A stretch of DNA of 64,000 nucleotides from Nitrosopumilus sp. (GTDB taxonomy: Archaea; Thermoproteota; Nitrososphaeria; Nitrososphaerales; Nitrosopumilaceae), in NCBI GenBank assembly GCA_965205675.1, contig OZ242186.1, forward strand, positions 1,152,001-1,216,000. Direction: 5' to 3'. Shown here in pieces: positions 3,486 through 57,121 of this stretch. How positions within the stretch are numbered: the first letter of the stretch is position 1; each line of letters starts with the position of its first letter. The notes beneath the pieces are model-generated. The model searched no databases and was not told where the DNA came from. It saw only the letters and a list, made by a program, of their open reading frames with translations. The position numbers were made by a program, and so were the translations under genes.

Positions 3486-4085
3486 ATGTCAAAGAGTACA
3501 AGACAATCCAAGGTTTCCTCTGGGAATCAATTCATGAAAGGTACAAGCATTAATTTTTTGAGAAAAGCATGCAAGAATGAAAAAAATGCAAAAGCAAAGA
3601 TAAGATTAAAGGCTGCAATACTAAGAAAACAAAATATTCCGTATTCTGTGATATGTGCAAGTCTGGATGTCATACCATCAACTCTGTCCTACTGGCTAAA
3701 TCGAATGGATGAAGAGGGAATATCTGCATCACGCCGCAAGAAATATTCTGGTTCTAGATGTTTTTTAAATGAAAAACAACTAGTATCATTAAGAAATGAT
3801 CTGATTTCAGGTCCTCAGAGATTTGGATTTAATCAATTCATGTGGAGTACAAGAATGGTAATTACACATGTGAATAAAAAATACAACACCCTATACTCTG
3901 CACGTGGAATGCGAGAATTGCTACACAGAATTGGATTTTCATCTAAAAAACCACGTCCCACACATCATAAATCAGCCTCAAAAGAGGAACAAACCCGTTT
4001 TAAAAAAACGCAAAAAGGAGTATCAAAAAATATTCCAAATTGGGACATATCACGCTATGTCTGGATGAGTCAACAAACAAGATAG
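3486..4085 (+). CDS. IS630 transposase OrfA (HTH part)
   Basis: HTH with WSTRMV...LLHRIGFSSKKPRP motif; slippery TTT AAA AAA AC at 3999-4009. Confidence 0.85.
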   Translation: MSKSTRQSKVSSGNQFMKGTSINFLRKACKNEKNAKAKIRLKAAILRKQNIPYSVICASLDVIPSTLSYWLNRMDEEGISASRRKKYSGSRCFLNEKQLVSLRNDLISGPQRFGFNQFMWSTRMVITHVNKKYNTLYSARGMRELLHRIGFSSKKPRPTHHKSASKEEQTRFKKTQKGVSKNIPNWDISRYVWMSQQTR

Positions 4086-4546
4086 CACCTAACATAAAGC
4101 GCGGATGGTATCTTGCAGAGAATAACATTACCACACCAATTAATTACACTCGAGAAAAATTTCAATCATTTGGTGCATTGGGGAATAACGGTGTATTTTT
4201 TTGCAAGTTCTATGATAAATCAAACACAGACTCATTTCTTGATTTCTTAAAATCCTTGCAGAAACAATTTGGTAAGAAACTGTTATTATTTGCAGACAAT
4301 GCATCATACCACAAAAGTGTCAGAGTAAAAGAATTTCTCAAAGCATCAAAAAGAAATGTAATCATAAGATATTTTCCTGCATACACTCCAGAACTCAATC
4401 CAATTGAGGTACAGTGGAGAGAAGAGAAAAATGGTAATGCCAATACATTCTTTGCAAATGGAACTGAGATGAGAAAACACATGCAGAAGAGACTAGATAA
4501 TGGAGACGTTCGAGTTGTGAAATTATTCAAATATTTAATGCCTTAA
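4040..4546 (+). CDS. IS630 transposase OrfB (DDE), fused to OrfA by a -1 frameshift
   Basis: LDES, DNASYH and PAYTPELNPIE motifs; the -1 frame is open from the A7 run at 4002-4008. Confidence 0.85.
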   Translation: MGHITLCLDESTNKIAPNIKRGWYLAENNITTPINYTREKFQSFGALGNNGVFFCKFYDKSNTDSFLDFLKSLQKQFGKKLLLFADNASYHKSVRVKEFLKASKRNVIIRYFPAYTPELNPIEVQWREEKNGNANTFFANGTEMRKHMQKRLDNGDVRVVKLFKYLMP

Positions 4547-5131
4547 CTATATTACAGATGACAAGTCACATGATTCAAAACATTTCATATCGCTAGTTGA
4601 GCAATCAAAACAGTTTGGCAATGTCACTAAAACTTTGGCTGATGGTGCATATGATACAAAGGATAATTTTTCATATCTGTATTATGATAATGATATTCTA
4701 CCTGCAATTAAAACAAGAAAAAACTCATCAGTTGTAACTGATTGTTATCCTCGGAGAAAGTCTGTTTTGGCACAATTGTATAACTTGGATCTATGGAAGC
4801 TCAGCGTAAGCTATGGGGATAGATGGATTGTAGAGGGAGCATTCTCTGTATTCAAAAGAATGTTTGGAGAGCATGTGACATCGCACAAGAGAGAAAACAT
4901 GATTCATGAATTGAAAATGAAAGTTTGTCTGTACAATAAAATGATTGCAATGCAATAGAATCAGAAATGATTTCAAAGCATCAAAGAGTGTTGATGGTTA
5001 TTTGGGGTTGGGAAACAAAGCAGTACTTGGGAAAGTAATCCAATTTAGATCACAAACTAACCATTATTTCATCAGTTAAACAACAAATTTGGATAGAAAA
5101 AGCTTGATGGAGGTGTGCTGCTCCATCAAAT

Positions 5132-5498
5132 ATGAATCATAATCTTGATTTTGCACACCTTAGAAATTCAACAACTCAAGCATTTGCAAATATTGCTAAA
5201 ATAATGTGCACAACATTGTCGTTTTCTACTTCACAGAAAAACAACGCACAATACAATTCAGAGGACATTCATCATTTCATCATGGAGTGTTGTCTTGGTA
5301 ACTGTTATTCTGAATCAACTACAAAGAAATTGAAGATAAAAACAGAATGCATCATTCCATCAGGCTCTTGGATTAGAAAGCAGATTGCAAAAATACCGCA
5401 AGAGAAAATGATTATTGCATTATCTGATGAAATTGATCAAACAATTACACACCTAAAGAATTTGGGAATGTTGAATCATCCAGTAACTGTTGCAATTG
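5132..5498 (+). pseudogene. ISH3 transposase N-terminal fragment
   Basis: ...IPSGSWIRKQI...PVTVAI, cut by the IS3 end at the codon expected for the first catalytic Asp. Confidence 0.8.
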
Positions 5499-5635
5499 TG
5501 GTCTGGTCCCCTCTAGAGTAGGACCGGTAGCATACATACACTTTTCAGATAACTTGGGAGGCTTACCCTCATGGTAAAGAGCAAATTCACATCAGCAGAA
5601 AAGTCAAGAGTGGTTTTAGAGTCACTAAACACAAA
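5499..5635 (+). mobile_element. Left-end fragment of the IS3 element (copy of 55187-55323)
   Basis: 137 bp matching the intact copy from TGGTCTGGTCCCCT to CACTAAACACAAA. Confidence 0.92.
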
Positions 5636-5679
5636 TCTATGTGAAATCTTTAAAAACATTTGCACTCTTTTGCAACACA

Positions 5680-5855
5680 TGAGAATGGCTACCGCTAGAG
5701 ATGATCCCATTCATTTTCAAAAGATGAAACCGGACACATATCTATTCGAGGATCTCCCTCAGTACCATTCTTCATCCATTTATCAGAACCATGCCGCAGT
5801 TACAAAACGAGGATCTCCCTCAATATGTTTAACGAGGATTATAGTTCTGATCATA
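5680..5855 (-). ncRNA. Candidate bridge/seek RNA of the IS1111-type element
   Basis: Two stem-closed loops (5782-5851, 5723-5776), each capped by the same 15-nt hairpin UGAGGGAGAUCCUCG; loop segments resemble the donor junction and target. Position downstream of tnp matches IS1111 seekRNAs. Folding done by eye only. Confidence 0.65.
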
Positions 5856-5863
5856 ATGTTTCA

Positions 5864-6973
5864 TTATGCATTTTTGATGCACTGGTAAAATGTCATGTTG
5901 TTTTTTAACATCCAGTAAATTATTCTCAACAGTTTGGATGCTGCTGCCACTGCAGCTTTTGATGTCCCCCTCTTTTTTGCAAGACGTTTGTAAAAATTTG
6001 TAATGGTGCTGTTTTTTGCATATCTTACATGAGAATGTACTGCCTCCACCAGAACCCAGCGTAACATGCTACTTCCTCTTCTTGTTATGGACCCATGGCG
6101 TATGGTGTCAGCTGAGTTTCTCACCGATGGTACAATTCCTGCATATGAACACAGTTTGTGAGAATCTGAAAATCTTTCGATATTGTCAATTTCAGAGGAT
6201 ATGGTTAATGCAGTAAATCTTCCAACACCAGGTATTGATTCTAAGAGTTGTGCATTAGAATCATGTTTTAGAGCATCCTTGATTCTCATGTCTGACTCTG
6301 CGATTCTATCATTGATTGATATTGTCATCTTGAGATATCCATCTATTCGATAGTCATCTAATCCCAACAGTTTGTGCACATATGAATCAGAAAATGCAGT
6401 TCCTGGTATCTTGATTGCATTTTGTAAGGTTATACTGTGAATCAAATTTTTCATCCTTGTCCTGTTGCGGACTAGTTTGGTTCTATATCTCACCAGTTGT
6501 CTTGTTTGCACGGTATCTTTTTCTGGTACATGACAAGATGAGATGTATCCTCCTCTTAGCAAATCTGCCAAGATGTGAGCATCAATCTTGTCAGTTTTTT
6601 TCTTTGATGCTGCAATTGCTTTTGTGTGATATGGGTTTGATAGTATTACATCAAATCCTAGTTCGTCTCGCAGAAACCTAAACACGCCATACCAGACAGA
6701 TGATGATTCCATTACACATTTTGAGTTTTTTGGGATTGCAGAAAATACTTTTTTGATATCCTCTCTGGTGTTTGTAATTTTTTCATTGAATAATGTATGT
6801 CCTTTATCATCCATTGTTTCGACCTGTAAGAATTCTTTGTGCAAATCAATTCCGACATAGGTCATGGGTTTTGTCTTTCTAGTCCTAATGATTTTCTTTG
6901 GTTTTTTCTTGGAGGTGTATCTTTTAGAAACTATAGAATCAGCAGTACCATCTAAATTTCGTTGTTTATTCAC
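5864..6973 (-). CDS. IS110/IS1111 recombinase (DEDD RuvC-like + Tnp domain); start is GTG 6973 or ATG 6865
   Basis: YVGIDLHK, VMESS, KKTDKIDA, SIPGVG, YAGIVPSVRNSA and AASKLLRIIYWMLK motifs. Confidence 0.93.
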   Translation of the reverse strand: MNKQRNLDGTADSIVSKRYTSKKKPKKIIRTRKTKPMTYVGIDLHKEFLQVETMDDKGHTLFNEKITNTREDIKKVFSAIPKNSKCVMESSSVWYGVFRFLRDELGFDVILSNPYHTKAIAASKKKTDKIDAHILADLLRGGYISSCHVPEKDTVQTRQLVRYRTKLVRNRTRMKNLIHSITLQNAIKIPGTAFSDSYVHKLLGLDDYRIDGYLKMTISINDRIAESDMRIKDALKHDSNAQLLESIPGVGRFTALTISSEIDNIERFSDSHKLCSYAGIVPSVRNSADTIRHGSITRRGSSMLRWVLVEAVHSHVRYAKNSTITNFYKRLAKKRGTSKAAVAAASKLLRIIYWMLKNNMTFYQCIKNA

Positions 6974-6982
6974 ATATGGTTA

Positions 6983-7325
6983 CTTTGCAACAAATATCAA
7001 AAGAGCAGAGATATCCCAAGACATTTGGCAAATCCAGGACCAGTATCGCAGAAGGTGGGGAATAGAGACAGGTTATGCATGTGTGGAAAAGTTCAGACCA
7101 AGGACATGCAGTGTTAATCCGACTGTCAGGTTTTTGTATTTTTTCTATCCTTTGATTTTGTTTAATGCATGGGTTATTGCAAATTGTACGTTGAAGAATA
7201 TTTGTTCTATCAATCACACAAATCCAATAATTACAATTGAGATCCTCAAGTGCATCTTTGGAATTATTATTGTGGGTTTCTTTAGAAGAATAAAATCCCA
7301 ATACTATTTGGAAGATGTCAGGTAG
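6983..7325 (+). pseudogene. ISH3 transposase C-terminal fragment
   Basis: FATNI...YRRRWGIETGY...RFLYFFYPLILFNAW, the IS4/ISH3 YREK signature. Confidence 0.85.
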
Positions 7326-7403
7326 TTACTTTCCCAAGTACTGTAGACAGATACAAACAAGCCCATTTTTATTTCATGTAAAAAATTAACAAGTGAAAAT
7401 AAG

Positions 7404-8306
7404 TTATCTACGCTTAGATTTTTTAGAGGTGGTCTTTTTCTTTGCAGGGCTCTTTTTAGAGGTGGTCTTTTTCTTTGCAGGGCTCTTTTTAGAGGTGGTC
7501 TTTTTCTTTGCAGGGCTCTTTTTAGAGGTGGTCTTTTTCTTTGCAGGGCTCTTTTTAGAGGTGGTCTTTTTCTTTGCAGGGCTCTTTTTAGAGGTGGTCT
7601 TTTTCTTTGCAGGGCTCTTTTTAGAGGTGGTCTTTTTCTTTGCGGTAATTTTTCTTCGATTTGCCAGTAATTCTTTGAGTTTAACATTAGCTTTATCTAA
7701 AGACTTTTGTGCAGATTCTTCGGTTTTGATTCGTTTTTGTAATTCTTTAAGAAATTTTTGGACAGATTTGTGATTTGCAGTTTTAGTTTCACGTAAAGAA
7801 GGCTTTGATTTAGTTTGTTTTTGGATTTTAGAGACAATTTTAGATTTAATACCAGAGAAAGCAGCGACATCGTCTGAAATCTTTTTTGCAGTTTTTTGCC
7901 TACTTTTAATTTCTTCAATTAATTCACGCACATGGTCATTTAATGAACGTAATCTAGTCTCAGCATTTTGTTTTTCTATGAAATTATCAGCAAATTCAAT
8001 TTCTTGTTCAATCTGTTCGATGGTTTCTTTTTCTCTAGCAAGTCGTTCTTCTGCTGTAGTAACTAGTCTTCCAATACTCTCCAATTGGGAATTTTTCCTA
8101 TCAATAACAGTTGAGACATCAGCAGATTCCTCTTTTTCAGACTCTATTTTTTTATCAAGCAAGTGTAAACCAGAAGAAGAGTGTTTTTCAGCAGAACGGA
8201 ATTCTTTAATTTGTTCTTCAGCTTTTTTACGTAGTTTAGTTGCTTCTTGTTTCTTTTGTCGTAGTTGAACTACTATTTTTTCTAATGATGCCAATGATTG
8301 TATCAA
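7404..8306 (-). CDS. Long coiled-coil protein with a histone-H1-like Lys/Thr/Ser/Pro/Ala tail
   Basis: About 220-aa charged coiled coil followed by (AKKKTTSKKSP)x6 + AKKKTTSKKSKRR; start may be TTG 8294 (MASLEK). Confidence 0.85.
   Translation of the reverse strand: MIQSLASLEKIVVQLRQKKQEATKLRKKAEEQIKEFRSAEKHSSSGLHLLDKKIESEKEESADVSTVIDRKNSQLESIGRLVTTAEERLAREKETIEQIEQEIEFADNFIEKQNAETRLRSLNDHVRELIEEIKSRQKTAKKISDDVAAFSGIKSKIVSKIQKQTKSKPSLRETKTANHKSVQKFLKELQKRIKTEESAQKSLDKANVKLKELLANRRKITAKKKTTSKKSPAKKKTTSKKSPAKKKTTSKKSPAKKKTTSKKSPAKKKTTSKKSPAKKKTTSKKSPAKKKTTSKKSKRR
7420..7643. repeat. Perfect 33-bp tandem repeat, 6 full copies + 26 nt
   Basis: Unit TTTTTAGAGGTGGTCTTTTTCTTTGCAGGGCTC, no mismatches seen, no spacers. 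Confidence 0.97.
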
Positions 8307-55057: not shown

Positions 55058-55258
55058 AAGCTTGGCTCCGAGTTTATACATTTAAGGATATTGGATAAAT
55101 TCCAAGTGTCTAGGAAGGAAATTTTTGTAATTTTTTTTTAACAGTCTATTCAGGATTTGATCGCATTTTGCTATTTTTTTAGATCTTGGTCTGGTCCCCT
55201 CTAGAGTAGGACCGGTAGCATACATACACTTTTCAGATAACTTGGGAGGCTTACCCTC

Positions 55259-55549
55259 ATGGTAAAGAGCAAATTCACATCAGCAGAAAAGTCAAGAGTG
55301 GTTTTAGAGTCACTAAACACAAACATTGCAACTGCAGAGTTGTGCAGAAAGTACAATATTCATCCACAGACATTCTACCAATGGAGGGAACGATTTGTAG
55401 AAGGTGGCAAGGCATCATTAAATGGCACACCAAACGGAGATGTCTGCAAGAATCTGCAAAAGGAAAATGATTCCCTCAAAAAACTAATCGGCGAGATCAC
55501 AATTGCCAATGACATTTTAAAAAAAACGTTGGAGAACCAGAAAAGATGA
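55259..55549 (+). CDS. IS3 OrfA
   Basis: HTH (AELCRKYNIHPQTFYQW) plus leucine zipper; A8 slippery run at 55519-55526. Confidence 0.92.
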   Translation: MVKSKFTSAEKSRVVLESLNTNIATAELCRKYNIHPQTFYQWRERFVEGGKASLNGTPNGDVCKNLQKENDSLKKLIGEITIANDILKKTLENQKR

Positions 55550-56367
55550 CTGCAGTGAATCAACTGAACAAACACATCAGTTTGAACAAGTCATTGTTAT
55601 TAATTGGAGTCTCAAAATCCAAATGGTATTACTCAAAGTCACCAAGAAGGATTCAGACAGATCCTGCAGTAACTGATGTAGTTCAAAAGATTGGAAAACA
55701 AAGGCCAACTTATGGAACCAGACGCATGGCATCCCAAGTCTCAAGGGAACTGAACAAGCCTGTAAACAGAAAACAAATCAGAAGAATATTTCACAAATTG
55801 GGCTGGATTGGGCCTAAAAAGACCAAAAATGACATCATCAAATCTGCCAGAACATTATTCAAGCCTGATGCACCAAACCAGTTGTGGCAGACAGACATCA
55901 CATATGTCTGGTGTGGGGTTGACAGATGGTGCTACTGCTTTAACGTGATTGATGCATTTAGCAGGAAATGGATTTGGCATTCATTTGATGTGGCAGCTCC
56001 AAAGAGCACTGCAATTGACAGCATCATTAATGCAGTAGCTACTGCAAAGCCTGATTGCACAAAACTGATTCTCAGAACTGACAACGGTTCGCAATACAAC
56101 AGCCGAGATTTCAGAAAAGCAGTTGTTCTACTTGGAATAAGACACGAATTCATCGGGCACCACACGCCAGAACAAAACGGACATGTCGAATCATTCCACA
56201 AGACACTCAAGAAGGAATACTTGTGGAGGTACGAGTTTGCAAACTATCAGGAAGCCGAAGTTGCTCTAGAGAAAGCACGAATCGATTACAATGGTTCCAG
56301 GATTCATTCAGCGTTAGGATACCTTACTCCTGATGAATTCATGGAGTTATGGGAGATGAAAACATAA
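55546..56367 (+). CDS. IS3 OrfB (rve DDE)
   Basis: WQTDITY, TDNGSQY, PEQNGHVESFH and HSALGY motifs; -1 frame relative to OrfA with ATGA overlap. Confidence 0.94.
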   Translation: MTAVNQLNKHISLNKSLLLIGVSKSKWYYSKSPRRIQTDPAVTDVVQKIGKQRPTYGTRRMASQVSRELNKPVNRKQIRRIFHKLGWIGPKKTKNDIIKSARTLFKPDAPNQLWQTDITYVWCGVDRWCYCFNVIDAFSRKWIWHSFDVAAPKSTAIDSIINAVATAKPDCTKLILRTDNGSQYNSRDFRKAVVLLGIRHEFIGHHTPEQNGHVESFHKTLKKEYLWRYEFANYQEAEVALEKARIDYNGSRIHSALGYLTPDEFMELWEMKT

Positions 56368-56389
56368 ATGAATCAGACTGTATGTAAGA

Positions 56390-57121
56390 TTATGCAAAAA
56401 GTGGTACTAAAAACAGGGGTCCACTCCAATCTTCTTCAAAAACTTGTTCAAATGTTTCATATGACTGCGCTCCAAACAAGCTGGTTATTTTTCCATCTAG
56501 GCTTATCACAAAAAATGCAGGAGTTCCAGTTAGTTCTAAACTTTGTGCATCTTCGTTACTGGCCAGTATTGTTTGTGAGTGTACTCCGTTTAACATACAT
56601 TCAGTCCACACATCCAAGTCCAATCCTATTTCTTGAGCAAATTTTCCCAGGTTTTCTGATGATGCCCATCCGTTGTTTTCTCCAGTCCAATTTGAATATA
56701 ATATGTCGTGGTATTCCCAAAATAATCCTTGATCATTTGCGCAATGTGTTCCATGTGATGCGTTAACTGAGTCTGGACCAATAATGTTGTAATCTTTAAA
56801 AATTATTTTGACTTTTCCCGTATTTACATAATTTTCTAAAATTTTACCTTCAGTTGAATGAAAAAATACATTACAGAAATGACACTGGTAATCCCCAAAT
56901 TCAATTAATGTGATGGGCGCATTAGGATCTCCAAGTATTGGCGAACCGTTAGCTAAAAATGTGTCCATAGTCACTTTTGCAGGTTCTGCTTGTTGTATTG
57001 TAGGCGTTGGTTGAATTTCAAGCTCTGGTTGATTTGAAATAGTTCCAAATCCTAAAAATGCCACAATTATCACTACTGATGCAATTACAGCTCCAATGGC
57101 AAGAGATGGGGCATGTATCAT
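56390..57121 (-). CDS. DsbA-family thiol-disulfide oxidoreductase, C-terminus altered by IS3
   Basis: EFGDYQCHFC and GTPAF motifs; native end LKK* lies at 55171-55182, beyond the IS. Confidence 0.9.
   Translation of the reverse strand: MIHAPSLAIGAVIASVVIIVAFLGFGTISNQPELEIQPTPTIQQAEPAKVTMDTFLANGSPILGDPNAPITLIEFGDYQCHFCNVFFHSTEGKILENYVNTGKVKIIFKDYNIIGPDSVNASHGTHCANDQGLFWEYHDILYSNWTGENNGWASSENLGKFAQEIGLDLDVWTECMLNGVHSQTILASNEDAQSLELTGTPAFFVISLDGKITSLFGAQSYETFEQVFEEDWSGPLFLVPLFA

Follow-up and report, generated by a model that had tools for sequence, protein, structure and literature searches.

We analysed a stretch of 64,000 nucleotides (nt) from Nitrosopumilus sp. (contig OZ242186.1, positions 1,152,001 to 1,216,000 of the forward strand), called the window, and followed up an insertion sequence (IS) of the IS110 family at 5637-6981 whose two flanks belong to different mobile elements. 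This element is named A, and B, C and E are its sister IS110 families in the same genome. The window is AT-rich DNA (G+C of ~34% genome-wide) and the genome is assembled as one contig of 2.01 Mb with a completeness of 99.88%. One other genome, reached through protein relatives and carrying copies of A at 99% identity, is called the second genome.

Comparison of sequences and of the list of open reading frames (ORFs) showed that four mobile elements are nested between 5021 and 7343. The outermost is an ISH3-like IS, the 5' part of which (5021-5498, plus strand, ORF from 5132) is cut at 5498 by the insertion of an IS3-family element. This part is 91-92% identical to its relatives, which run on past 5498, as do the contigs of public sequencing runs that carry ISH3 sequence. 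The first 137 bp of the IS3 element follow (5499-5635, plus strand), from its left end TGGTCTGG to the insertion point of the IS110 element, and are 100% identical to the start of at least 10 IS3 copies. The stretch 5625-5636 (plus strand) holds CTAAACACAA, the half of the target specified by the predicted guide, and then AT, read as a copy of the core with the donor's first base. The body of A, 1345 bp of IS1111 type, occupies 5637-6981 on the minus strand and is flanked by the dinucleotides AT at 5635-5636 and AC at 6982-6983 (GT on the transposase strand). The 3' part of the ISH3-like IS (6984-7343, plus strand) is 91-94% identical to its relatives, and its first eight bases, TTTGCAAC (6984-6991), resemble the flank ATTGCAAC that the IS3 element has lost, so that the right junction of A reads GGTT-AC-TTTGCAAC over 6978-6991. 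The flanks of A do come from two different elements, as a first-pass annotation made from the letters of the window had proposed.

An intact IS3 copy is present at 55187-56428 of the same window. It has an HTH_Tnp_1 ORF and an rve integrase ORF, and its transposase scored 208.8 bits against a cut-off of 160. At 55313-55332 (plus strand) it shows the unoccupied site of A, CTAAACACAA-AC-ATTGCAAC, and the empty-site sequence given earlier for 55323-55332 was read correctly. All of the 16 intact IS3 copies of the genome carry this identical unoccupied site. Among 17 IS3 copies the site is occupied only once, in the copy that starts at 5499. An intact ISH3-like relative scored 149.9 bits against the NCBIfam ISH3 profile (E 8e-44, profile positions 2-295 of 298). 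We use the name ISH3-like because this score does not reach the curated cut-off of 225, though ISH3 is by far the best family. In the relatives, the sequence just before TTTGCAAC is ...CAGTATCTGGTT or ...CAATATCTGAGT (two copies in this genome, one in the second genome and contigs of three public runs). The DNA missing beside A is thus 1105 bp of the IS3 element and 471-479 bp of the ISH3-like gene, ~1.58 kb in total, in agreement with the earlier remark that the rest of the IS3 and the middle of the ISH3 gene had been lost.

The transposase of A (5864-6973, minus strand, 369 residues) matched Pfam PF01548 (N-terminal DEDD RuvC-like domain, E 1.2e-28) and PF02371 (C-terminal Transposase_20, E 2.7e-23), and scored 249.9 bits, for a cut-off of 140, with NCBIfam NF033542 'IS110 family RNA-guided transposase'. 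The non-coding DNA of A consists of 227 nt downstream of the gene (5863 to 5637) and of 8 nt upstream of its start codon at 6973. The subterminal inverted repeat is exact over 8 bp (TATGTGAA), which lies within the 7-17 bp of IS1111 elements, and its distance from the termini is 5 nt at one end and 1 nt at the other. A is an IS1111-type IS110 element with a DEDD recombinase and a putative two-loop bridge/seekRNA in its downstream 227 nt.

This genome contains three full copies of A (matching positions 1-1345 at 99-100%), one interrupted copy and one fragment, with 7-11 differences between any two of the copies compared. Six copies are found in the second genome, at 99%, and nothing above ~84% identity was found in 100 genomes of a set searched at the level of the Nitrosopumilaceae. 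The joined-end sequence expected of a circle or a tandem of A, tried with 8 spacers, had no match in the genome or in the fetched loci.

Target and guides of element A

Comparison of the upstream flanks of A showed that AC follows GGTT (plus strand) in 11 of 11 assembled copies, five from this genome and six from the second genome. The sequence after AC is different from copy to copy: TTTGCAAC, ACTAGAAT, TCTCTAAC, ATTGAATC and AAGTGCAA in this genome and six unrelated flanks in the second genome. The 11 flanks have only the core in common, and a twelfth, found in a public contig, is different again. The AC is absent before TTTGCAAC in all three assembled ISH3-like relatives, where the sequence is GGTT|TTTGCAAC or GAGT|TTTGCAAC, and likewise in contigs of three public runs. 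Because it follows every copy of A and is absent from the ISH3-like relatives, the AC at 6982-6983 is the retained target core of the IS3 site.

This changes how the resemblance between the lost and the new flank is to be read. The first-pass annotation had counted 9 identical bases out of 10 in the same register; the letters are right, and the shared extent falls to 7 of 8 bases ([A/T]TTGCAAC) since the AC is not derived from ISH3. The frequency of TTGCAAC in this genome is 1.9e-4 per position, and the agreement over 7 of 8 bases exceeds chance at a fixed register, for a resemblance that was noticed post hoc. The flanks of the other copies of A had been set beforehand as the test of a target shared by the two sites, and TTGCAAC occurs at that offset in none of the 10 other assembled copies. 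The ISH3-like copies, in which the second empty site was to be read, had no AC core in any copy seen.

The downstream flanks of A are similar to each other (n = 7). Read on the transposase strand, they are AT-[A/T]T-GTGTTTA[A/G] in four of the seven, including the copy of the window, AT-AT-ATGTTTTA in one, and weaker versions in two; the half-site CTAAACACAA recurs at four of the seven copies that have this junction. Of the 11 nt in the long guide of A, 9 pair with the IS3 site in one unbroken run, which makes it the second-best site within IS3. Only 4 of the 11 pair at the ISH3 breakpoint, whichever of three registers is used. The best reading of the compared sequences is that insertion of A is determined by CTAAACACA on the downstream side together with AC, and not by TTGCAAC on the upstream side. 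The proposal of two independent target sites with the consensus ACWTTGCAAC does not survive this comparison, in which conservation and guide complementarity are both on the opposite flank and the ISH3 breakpoint pairs at 4/11; nor did the single locus yield the target consensus. The determinant lies on the other side of the element.

The same data bear on a history with two insertions of A, one into IS3 and the other into the ISH3-like gene, after which homologous recombination between the two direct copies would have removed the DNA between them. Chimeric IS flanks classically arise in this way, several copies of A in the genome are 99% identical, and a near-cognate sequence, GCTAAACCCAAAAC, can be read in the ISH3-like gene ~45 bp before the breakpoint. 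However, the breakpoint has no AC and matches the guide at 4 of 11 positions only; a copy inserted there would have the ISH3 bases (TT or GT) as its core rather than AC and would not give the junction observed, while an insertion at the near-cognate sequence would have left ~44 bp more of ISH3 than is present. We consider two insertions followed by recombination, as had been suggested from the letters of the window, to be contradicted by these data and very improbable.

One other description of the junctions was rejected. If the GT and AT beside A were parts of the IS, accompanied by a separate 2-bp duplication, the upstream dinucleotide would not be expected to covary with the guide, as it does, or to differ in locus L067; in addition, the empty IS3 site and the relative of the flank of locus L044 both have GT at this position. 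Locus L044 is a copy of A in the second genome whose upstream flank is internal IS630-like sequence and whose downstream flank is unrelated unique DNA. The counterpart of that downstream flank in this genome (~G000:C1:1706916) reads ATCA-GT-ATGTTTAGG, an unoccupied site of the A type. No empty sites of the copies c2 and c4 were found in relatives, so that no copy of A has both flanks verified as contiguous.

We then compared the non-coding regions of A, B, C and E with those of ~15 additional types, taken from metagenome contigs and other genomes; the comparison covered 21 guide types. In all 21, the predicted RNA has two modules, each formed of an outer stem, an internal loop and a hairpin of the GAGG...CCUC type, with compensatory changes in several of the stem pairs. 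The loops are the variable parts of the modules and their sequence tracks the DNA around each element. In A, the predicted target-binding loop is at 5795-5836 (minus strand) and comprises a 5' guide from 5832 to 5822 (UUAAACAUAUU), a hairpin from 5821 to 5809 and a 3' guide from 5808 to 5798 (GUUUU-GU-AACU). The predicted donor-binding loop is at 5730-5777 (minus strand), with the GGAUGAAG stem, a 5' side from 5769 to 5759, a hairpin from 5758 to 5748 and a 3' side from 5747 to 5730 (..AUAG-AU-AUGUGU..).

Complementarity was found between the 5' side of the first loop and the flank past the downstream end, with a longest paired run of at least 7 in 16 of the 21 types, against 13.6% of mismatched guide and flank pairs. 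The mean run of 7.71 was reached in none of 5000 permutations, a p-value that is generous because related families are not independent, although the eye picks out the pattern readily. The 3' side of the first loop consists of a few bases of the other flank, the dinucleotide NU and AAC[U/C], which matches the first bases at the upstream end of the element. The guide core NU corresponds to the dinucleotide of the upstream junction in 41 of 42 rows (AT, GT, CT or TT by family); 10 further B-type rows lie outside these 42 automatic rows, and the core match there was read by eye. The guide core is GT in A, CT in a family of 14 copies, and TT or AT in others. The copy at L067 has GT where the rest of its family has TT, which indicates that the first core base at the upstream junction comes from the target. 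The downstream junction has AT in every case.

This asymmetry of the core was seen in all families, the upstream junction keeping the first base of the target and the downstream junction always having A. It fits the proposal, made from bench work, that these elements insert by exchanging one strand and are then replicated (bioRxiv 10.1101/2025.10.25.684509).

In the second loop, the 3' side AUAG/AUGG covaries with the element end CACATAG/CACATGG and the 5' side AUGG/AUAG covaries with the other end AACCAT/AACTAT, as judged by eye over the 21 aligned types. A natural chimera of the second genome (L081 and L083; non-coding region ~2570-2810) combines a B-type transposase and first loop with the second loop, tail and end of the A type. 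It lies in a B-type target, so that the target follows the first loop; this loop swap behaves as the code predicts. From these comparisons, the site choice of A would be made by the 5' side of the first loop, UUAAACAUAUU, which is predicted to pair with the DNA past the downstream end (the left flank in the window).

At 5825, the copies of A of the two genomes differ by one base of the long guide, U in the window and C in L044, and both variants read the same GTGTTTA sites, given G-U pairing.

Other readings of the RNA added little. A scan of 5400-7100 with Rfam gave chance-level matches only and no bridge RNA family, and the minimum free energy fold of the non-coding region of A (z = -2.58) is a lead only. 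RNAalifold found both modules, with an outer stem of the second loop different from the GAUGAA/UUCAUC pairing read by eye. The tail UGUUGCAAAAG (plus strand, 5668-5680), which shares 9 bases with the right flank, was tried as a guide for TTGCAAC and rejected, because it forms a 5-bp hairpin (UUGCA/UGCAA) and because a relative at 79% (L075) has a different hairpin at that place.

Deletion beside element A

The left junction of A is that of a normal guided insertion into IS3, of which the AC on the right is the remnant. The sequences show the anatomy of the locus, the code between guide and flank, the cognate half-site in IS3 and the non-cognate breakpoint in ISH3, whereas we infer both the order of events and the mechanism of the deletion. 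In the history that we favour, the IS3 element would first have inserted into the ISH3-like IS at 5498/5499, and A would then have been guided to the site CTAAACACAA-AC-ATTGCAAC and have inserted there. Later, ~1.58 kb would have been deleted, from the first base after the AC core to just before TTTGCAAC of the ISH3-like gene. The deleted segment starts with ATTGCAAC of IS3 and the retained DNA starts with TTTGCAAC at T6984, which form an imperfect direct repeat of 8 bp at the boundary of core and flank. Since the lost and the new flank share [A/T]TTGCAAC, we favour as the cause an event between short direct repeats, by replication slippage or single-strand annealing; binding or nicking of the junction by the recombinase could perhaps have triggered it, which is speculation. 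The whole of this statement, with a guided insertion into IS3, a later deletion, short repeats as its cause and TTGCAAC not being the target, has in our estimate a probability of roughly 0.6. What does not depend on a mechanism, namely that A was guided into IS3, that DNA was deleted afterwards and that TTGCAAC is not the target, is very probable, and the short-repeat mechanism taken by itself is a tentative proposal, somewhat short of an even chance.

Several points weigh against this history. Simple slippage on a repeat of 7 bp should have left AC-A-TTGCAAC, with the A that is found at this position in all 16 intact IS3 copies, and the sequence in the window is AC-T-TTGCAAC; with T instead of A at 6984, a slip needs extension from a terminal mismatch, correction of a heteroduplex or a later point change. 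A deletion mediated by repeats has no intrinsic reason to start at the boundary of the IS, and the coincidence is roughly 1 in 1000, a figure that was estimated and not computed; it is avoided if, speculatively, the junction itself triggers the deletion. At least one other copy of A (L044) has flanks of unrelated origin, and replacement of the upstream flank may therefore be recurrent and linked to the enzyme. The RNA of A is a prediction from DNA, and its short guide (UUUU before the core) matches the upstream flanks at only 0-2 of 5 bases in the six complete copies scored, against 3-5 of 5 bases for the short guide of most other families. Finally, none of the listed contigs of five public runs bridges 5635/5637 or 6983/6984; about two thirds of the sampled words are contained in these runs, and these are the repeats themselves.

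Some of these points would be explained by an aberrant reaction of the recombinase, in which the upstream junction (element end, AC and IS3 flank) recombined with a nearby flank-like sequence of ISH3 and the 1.58 kb were excised as a circle. The break is exactly at the boundary of core and flank, which would be the position of second-strand cleavage if the strands are framed to match IS621, as suggested by the polarity of the guides and by the core base kept at each junction. The old and the new flank agree at 7 of 8 bases (p ~2e-4 at a fixed register), and among other copies of A the flanks are unrelated (L044) or a target-like flank adjoins a truncated body. The poor fit of the short guide to the upstream flanks of A, together with L044, keeps this explanation alive, and another IS110 element is reported to move an end junction onto a new target flank, both in vitro and in vivo (bioRxiv 10.1101/2025.10.25.684509). 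However, the first core base normally comes from the target, as in L067, and the usual exchange point would import the TT of ISH3 and not AC. The ISH3 site pairs with neither guide (4/11 for the long one), and neither a reciprocal circle nor an undeleted allele was found among the served contigs of the public runs, which contain none of these junctions. We regard it as unlikely that the change of flank is the footprint of such a side reaction of a natural bridge recombinase, with the junction cut at the boundary of core and flank and rejoined to a similar (7/8) sequence nearby.

If this side reaction did take place, RNA-guided IS110 elements would make adjacent deletions by similarity of flanks and not by their guides, and the poor guide fit of the upstream flanks of A and the second copy with unrelated flanks would come from the same process. 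A deletion made by the enzyme would be an off-pathway activity relevant to genome editing with bridge recombinases.

The arrangement could also be an artefact of assembly, two copies of A having been joined through the 1.35-kb repeat so that the flanks were never neighbours. The genome is rich in near-identical IS copies, and neither junction is present in any of the public runs served, as contigs only, in whose listed contigs no undeleted allele or circle of this locus was found. Yet the assembly is the single, nearly complete contig described above, both flanks are parts of a single ISH3-like element, correctly ordered and oriented, which would be rare for a random mis-join, and the complementary flanks are at no other copy of A in the genome. 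A chimera of this type is very improbable.

A second rearranged copy of A was observed at G000:C1:954407-954612 (L006). It is a 206-bp fragment of the upstream end of A with B inserted in its terminus, and its internal break adjoins a sequence that resembles the preferred downstream flank of A (TAGTTTAGG).

Sister families, known systems and other features of the window

The suggestion that the element hits other transposons holds for A, which is in IS3, and extends to its sister families, which are found in the ISH3-like IS and in the ends of IS110 relatives. An unoccupied target of family C, CCA-AT-AATTACA, is present at 7224-7235 (plus strand) in the 3' part of the ISH3-like IS. The guide of C, UUGUAAUUAUU, is fully complementary to this site, which is occupied by C in two ISH3-like relatives. 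Family B, 68% identical to A in DNA, uses one fixed point in the upstream end of other IS110 elements, those of C in 8 of 9 copies and that of A in 1 of 9, and its first-loop guides match the upstream end of these C and A targets. Judging from this complementarity, B is apparently programmed to land in its own relatives. IS1111-type elements with a specific target in another mobile element have reportedly been described earlier, with transposon ends in bacteria as the targets. The targets here are instead internal sequences of IS3 and of the ISH3-like IS, and the upstream ends of sibling IS110 elements.

Insertions of B (L007, G000:C1:927247-931263, and eight other places) produce pairs arranged head to tail and leave hexamers behind in stacks (GGTTAT, AGTTAT).

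We compared A with the systems studied at the bench. Its likeness to the IS1111 seekRNA elements ISEc11, ISKpn4, ISPa11 and ISPst6 (Siddiquee et al. 2024, PMC11187229) is one of features. They have in common a DEDD transposase with a PF02371 C-terminal domain, a long downstream non-coding region, subterminal inverted repeats and one preferred site per element. In the seekRNAs of these IS1111 elements the match to the top strand of the target is 5' of the match to the bottom strand (PMC11187229), and this order is also that of the predicted RNA of A. Unlike theirs, the host of A is archaeal (the records of its relatives are Nitrosopumilus or Cenarchaeum) and its targets lie within other insertion sequences.

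Each loop of IS621 has two guides, one for either strand, and the core combines an invariant T with a variable, tolerant first base (PMC11208158). A is comparable to IS621 (Durrant et al. 2024, PMC11208160; Hiraizumi et al. 2024, PMC11208158) in its two internal loops with two guide segments each on opposite strands, one loop for the target and the other for its own ends, in its core of an invariant T and a variable first base, and in the few bases of the partner DNA that follow the guide in a handshake-like manner. Three differences were noted. The predicted RNA of A is downstream of the gene and not upstream, a position where bridge RNAs have been predicted for IS1111-type elements (PMC11208160). 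The long guide of A addresses the flank past the downstream end, and the two schemes would agree only if A is read from the complement of the transposase strand. The junctions of A keep different first core bases, that of the target at one and the A of the donor at the other.

In CazIS110-1, a junction at the end of the transposon can move to a new target flank by 'direct transfer' (Sun et al., bioRxiv 10.1101/2025.10.25.684509). This gives an element with a new upstream flank and an unchanged second junction, which is the geometry seen in the window. In CazIS110-1 the target-binding loop picks the new flank, whereas the new flank of A has no guide match and the retained core is that of the old target. 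One narrow text search of the literature for IS110 together with Nitrosopumilus returned nothing on this element. A is an archaeal IS1111-type element of the bridge/seekRNA kind that is already known. For archaeal IS1111-type elements, the locus offers a natural case in which the bridge/seekRNA code can be worked through, with guide positions that can be read straight from the DNA.

An A/T-rich box, TTTTTAAAG, is located at 5648-5656 (minus strand), ~12 nt inside the downstream end of A, and its position is conserved in all 21 types. It can possibly be read as a TATA box acting across the circle junction, as the promoter of a leaderless mRNA. The start codon of the transposase is 9 nt inside the upstream end, and joined ends would put the box ~25 nt before it.

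Two further features flank the nested elements. An IS630-like element at 3486-4546 has a transposase split over overlapping ORFs, 3486-4085 and 4040-4546, and copies of A in the second genome lie within relatives of this element. On the other side, an ORF of 300 residues at 7404-8306 (minus strand) ends in seven tandem lysine-rich units of 11 residues (KKKTTSKKSPA), which are encoded by a perfect 33-bp repeat at ~7420-7650.

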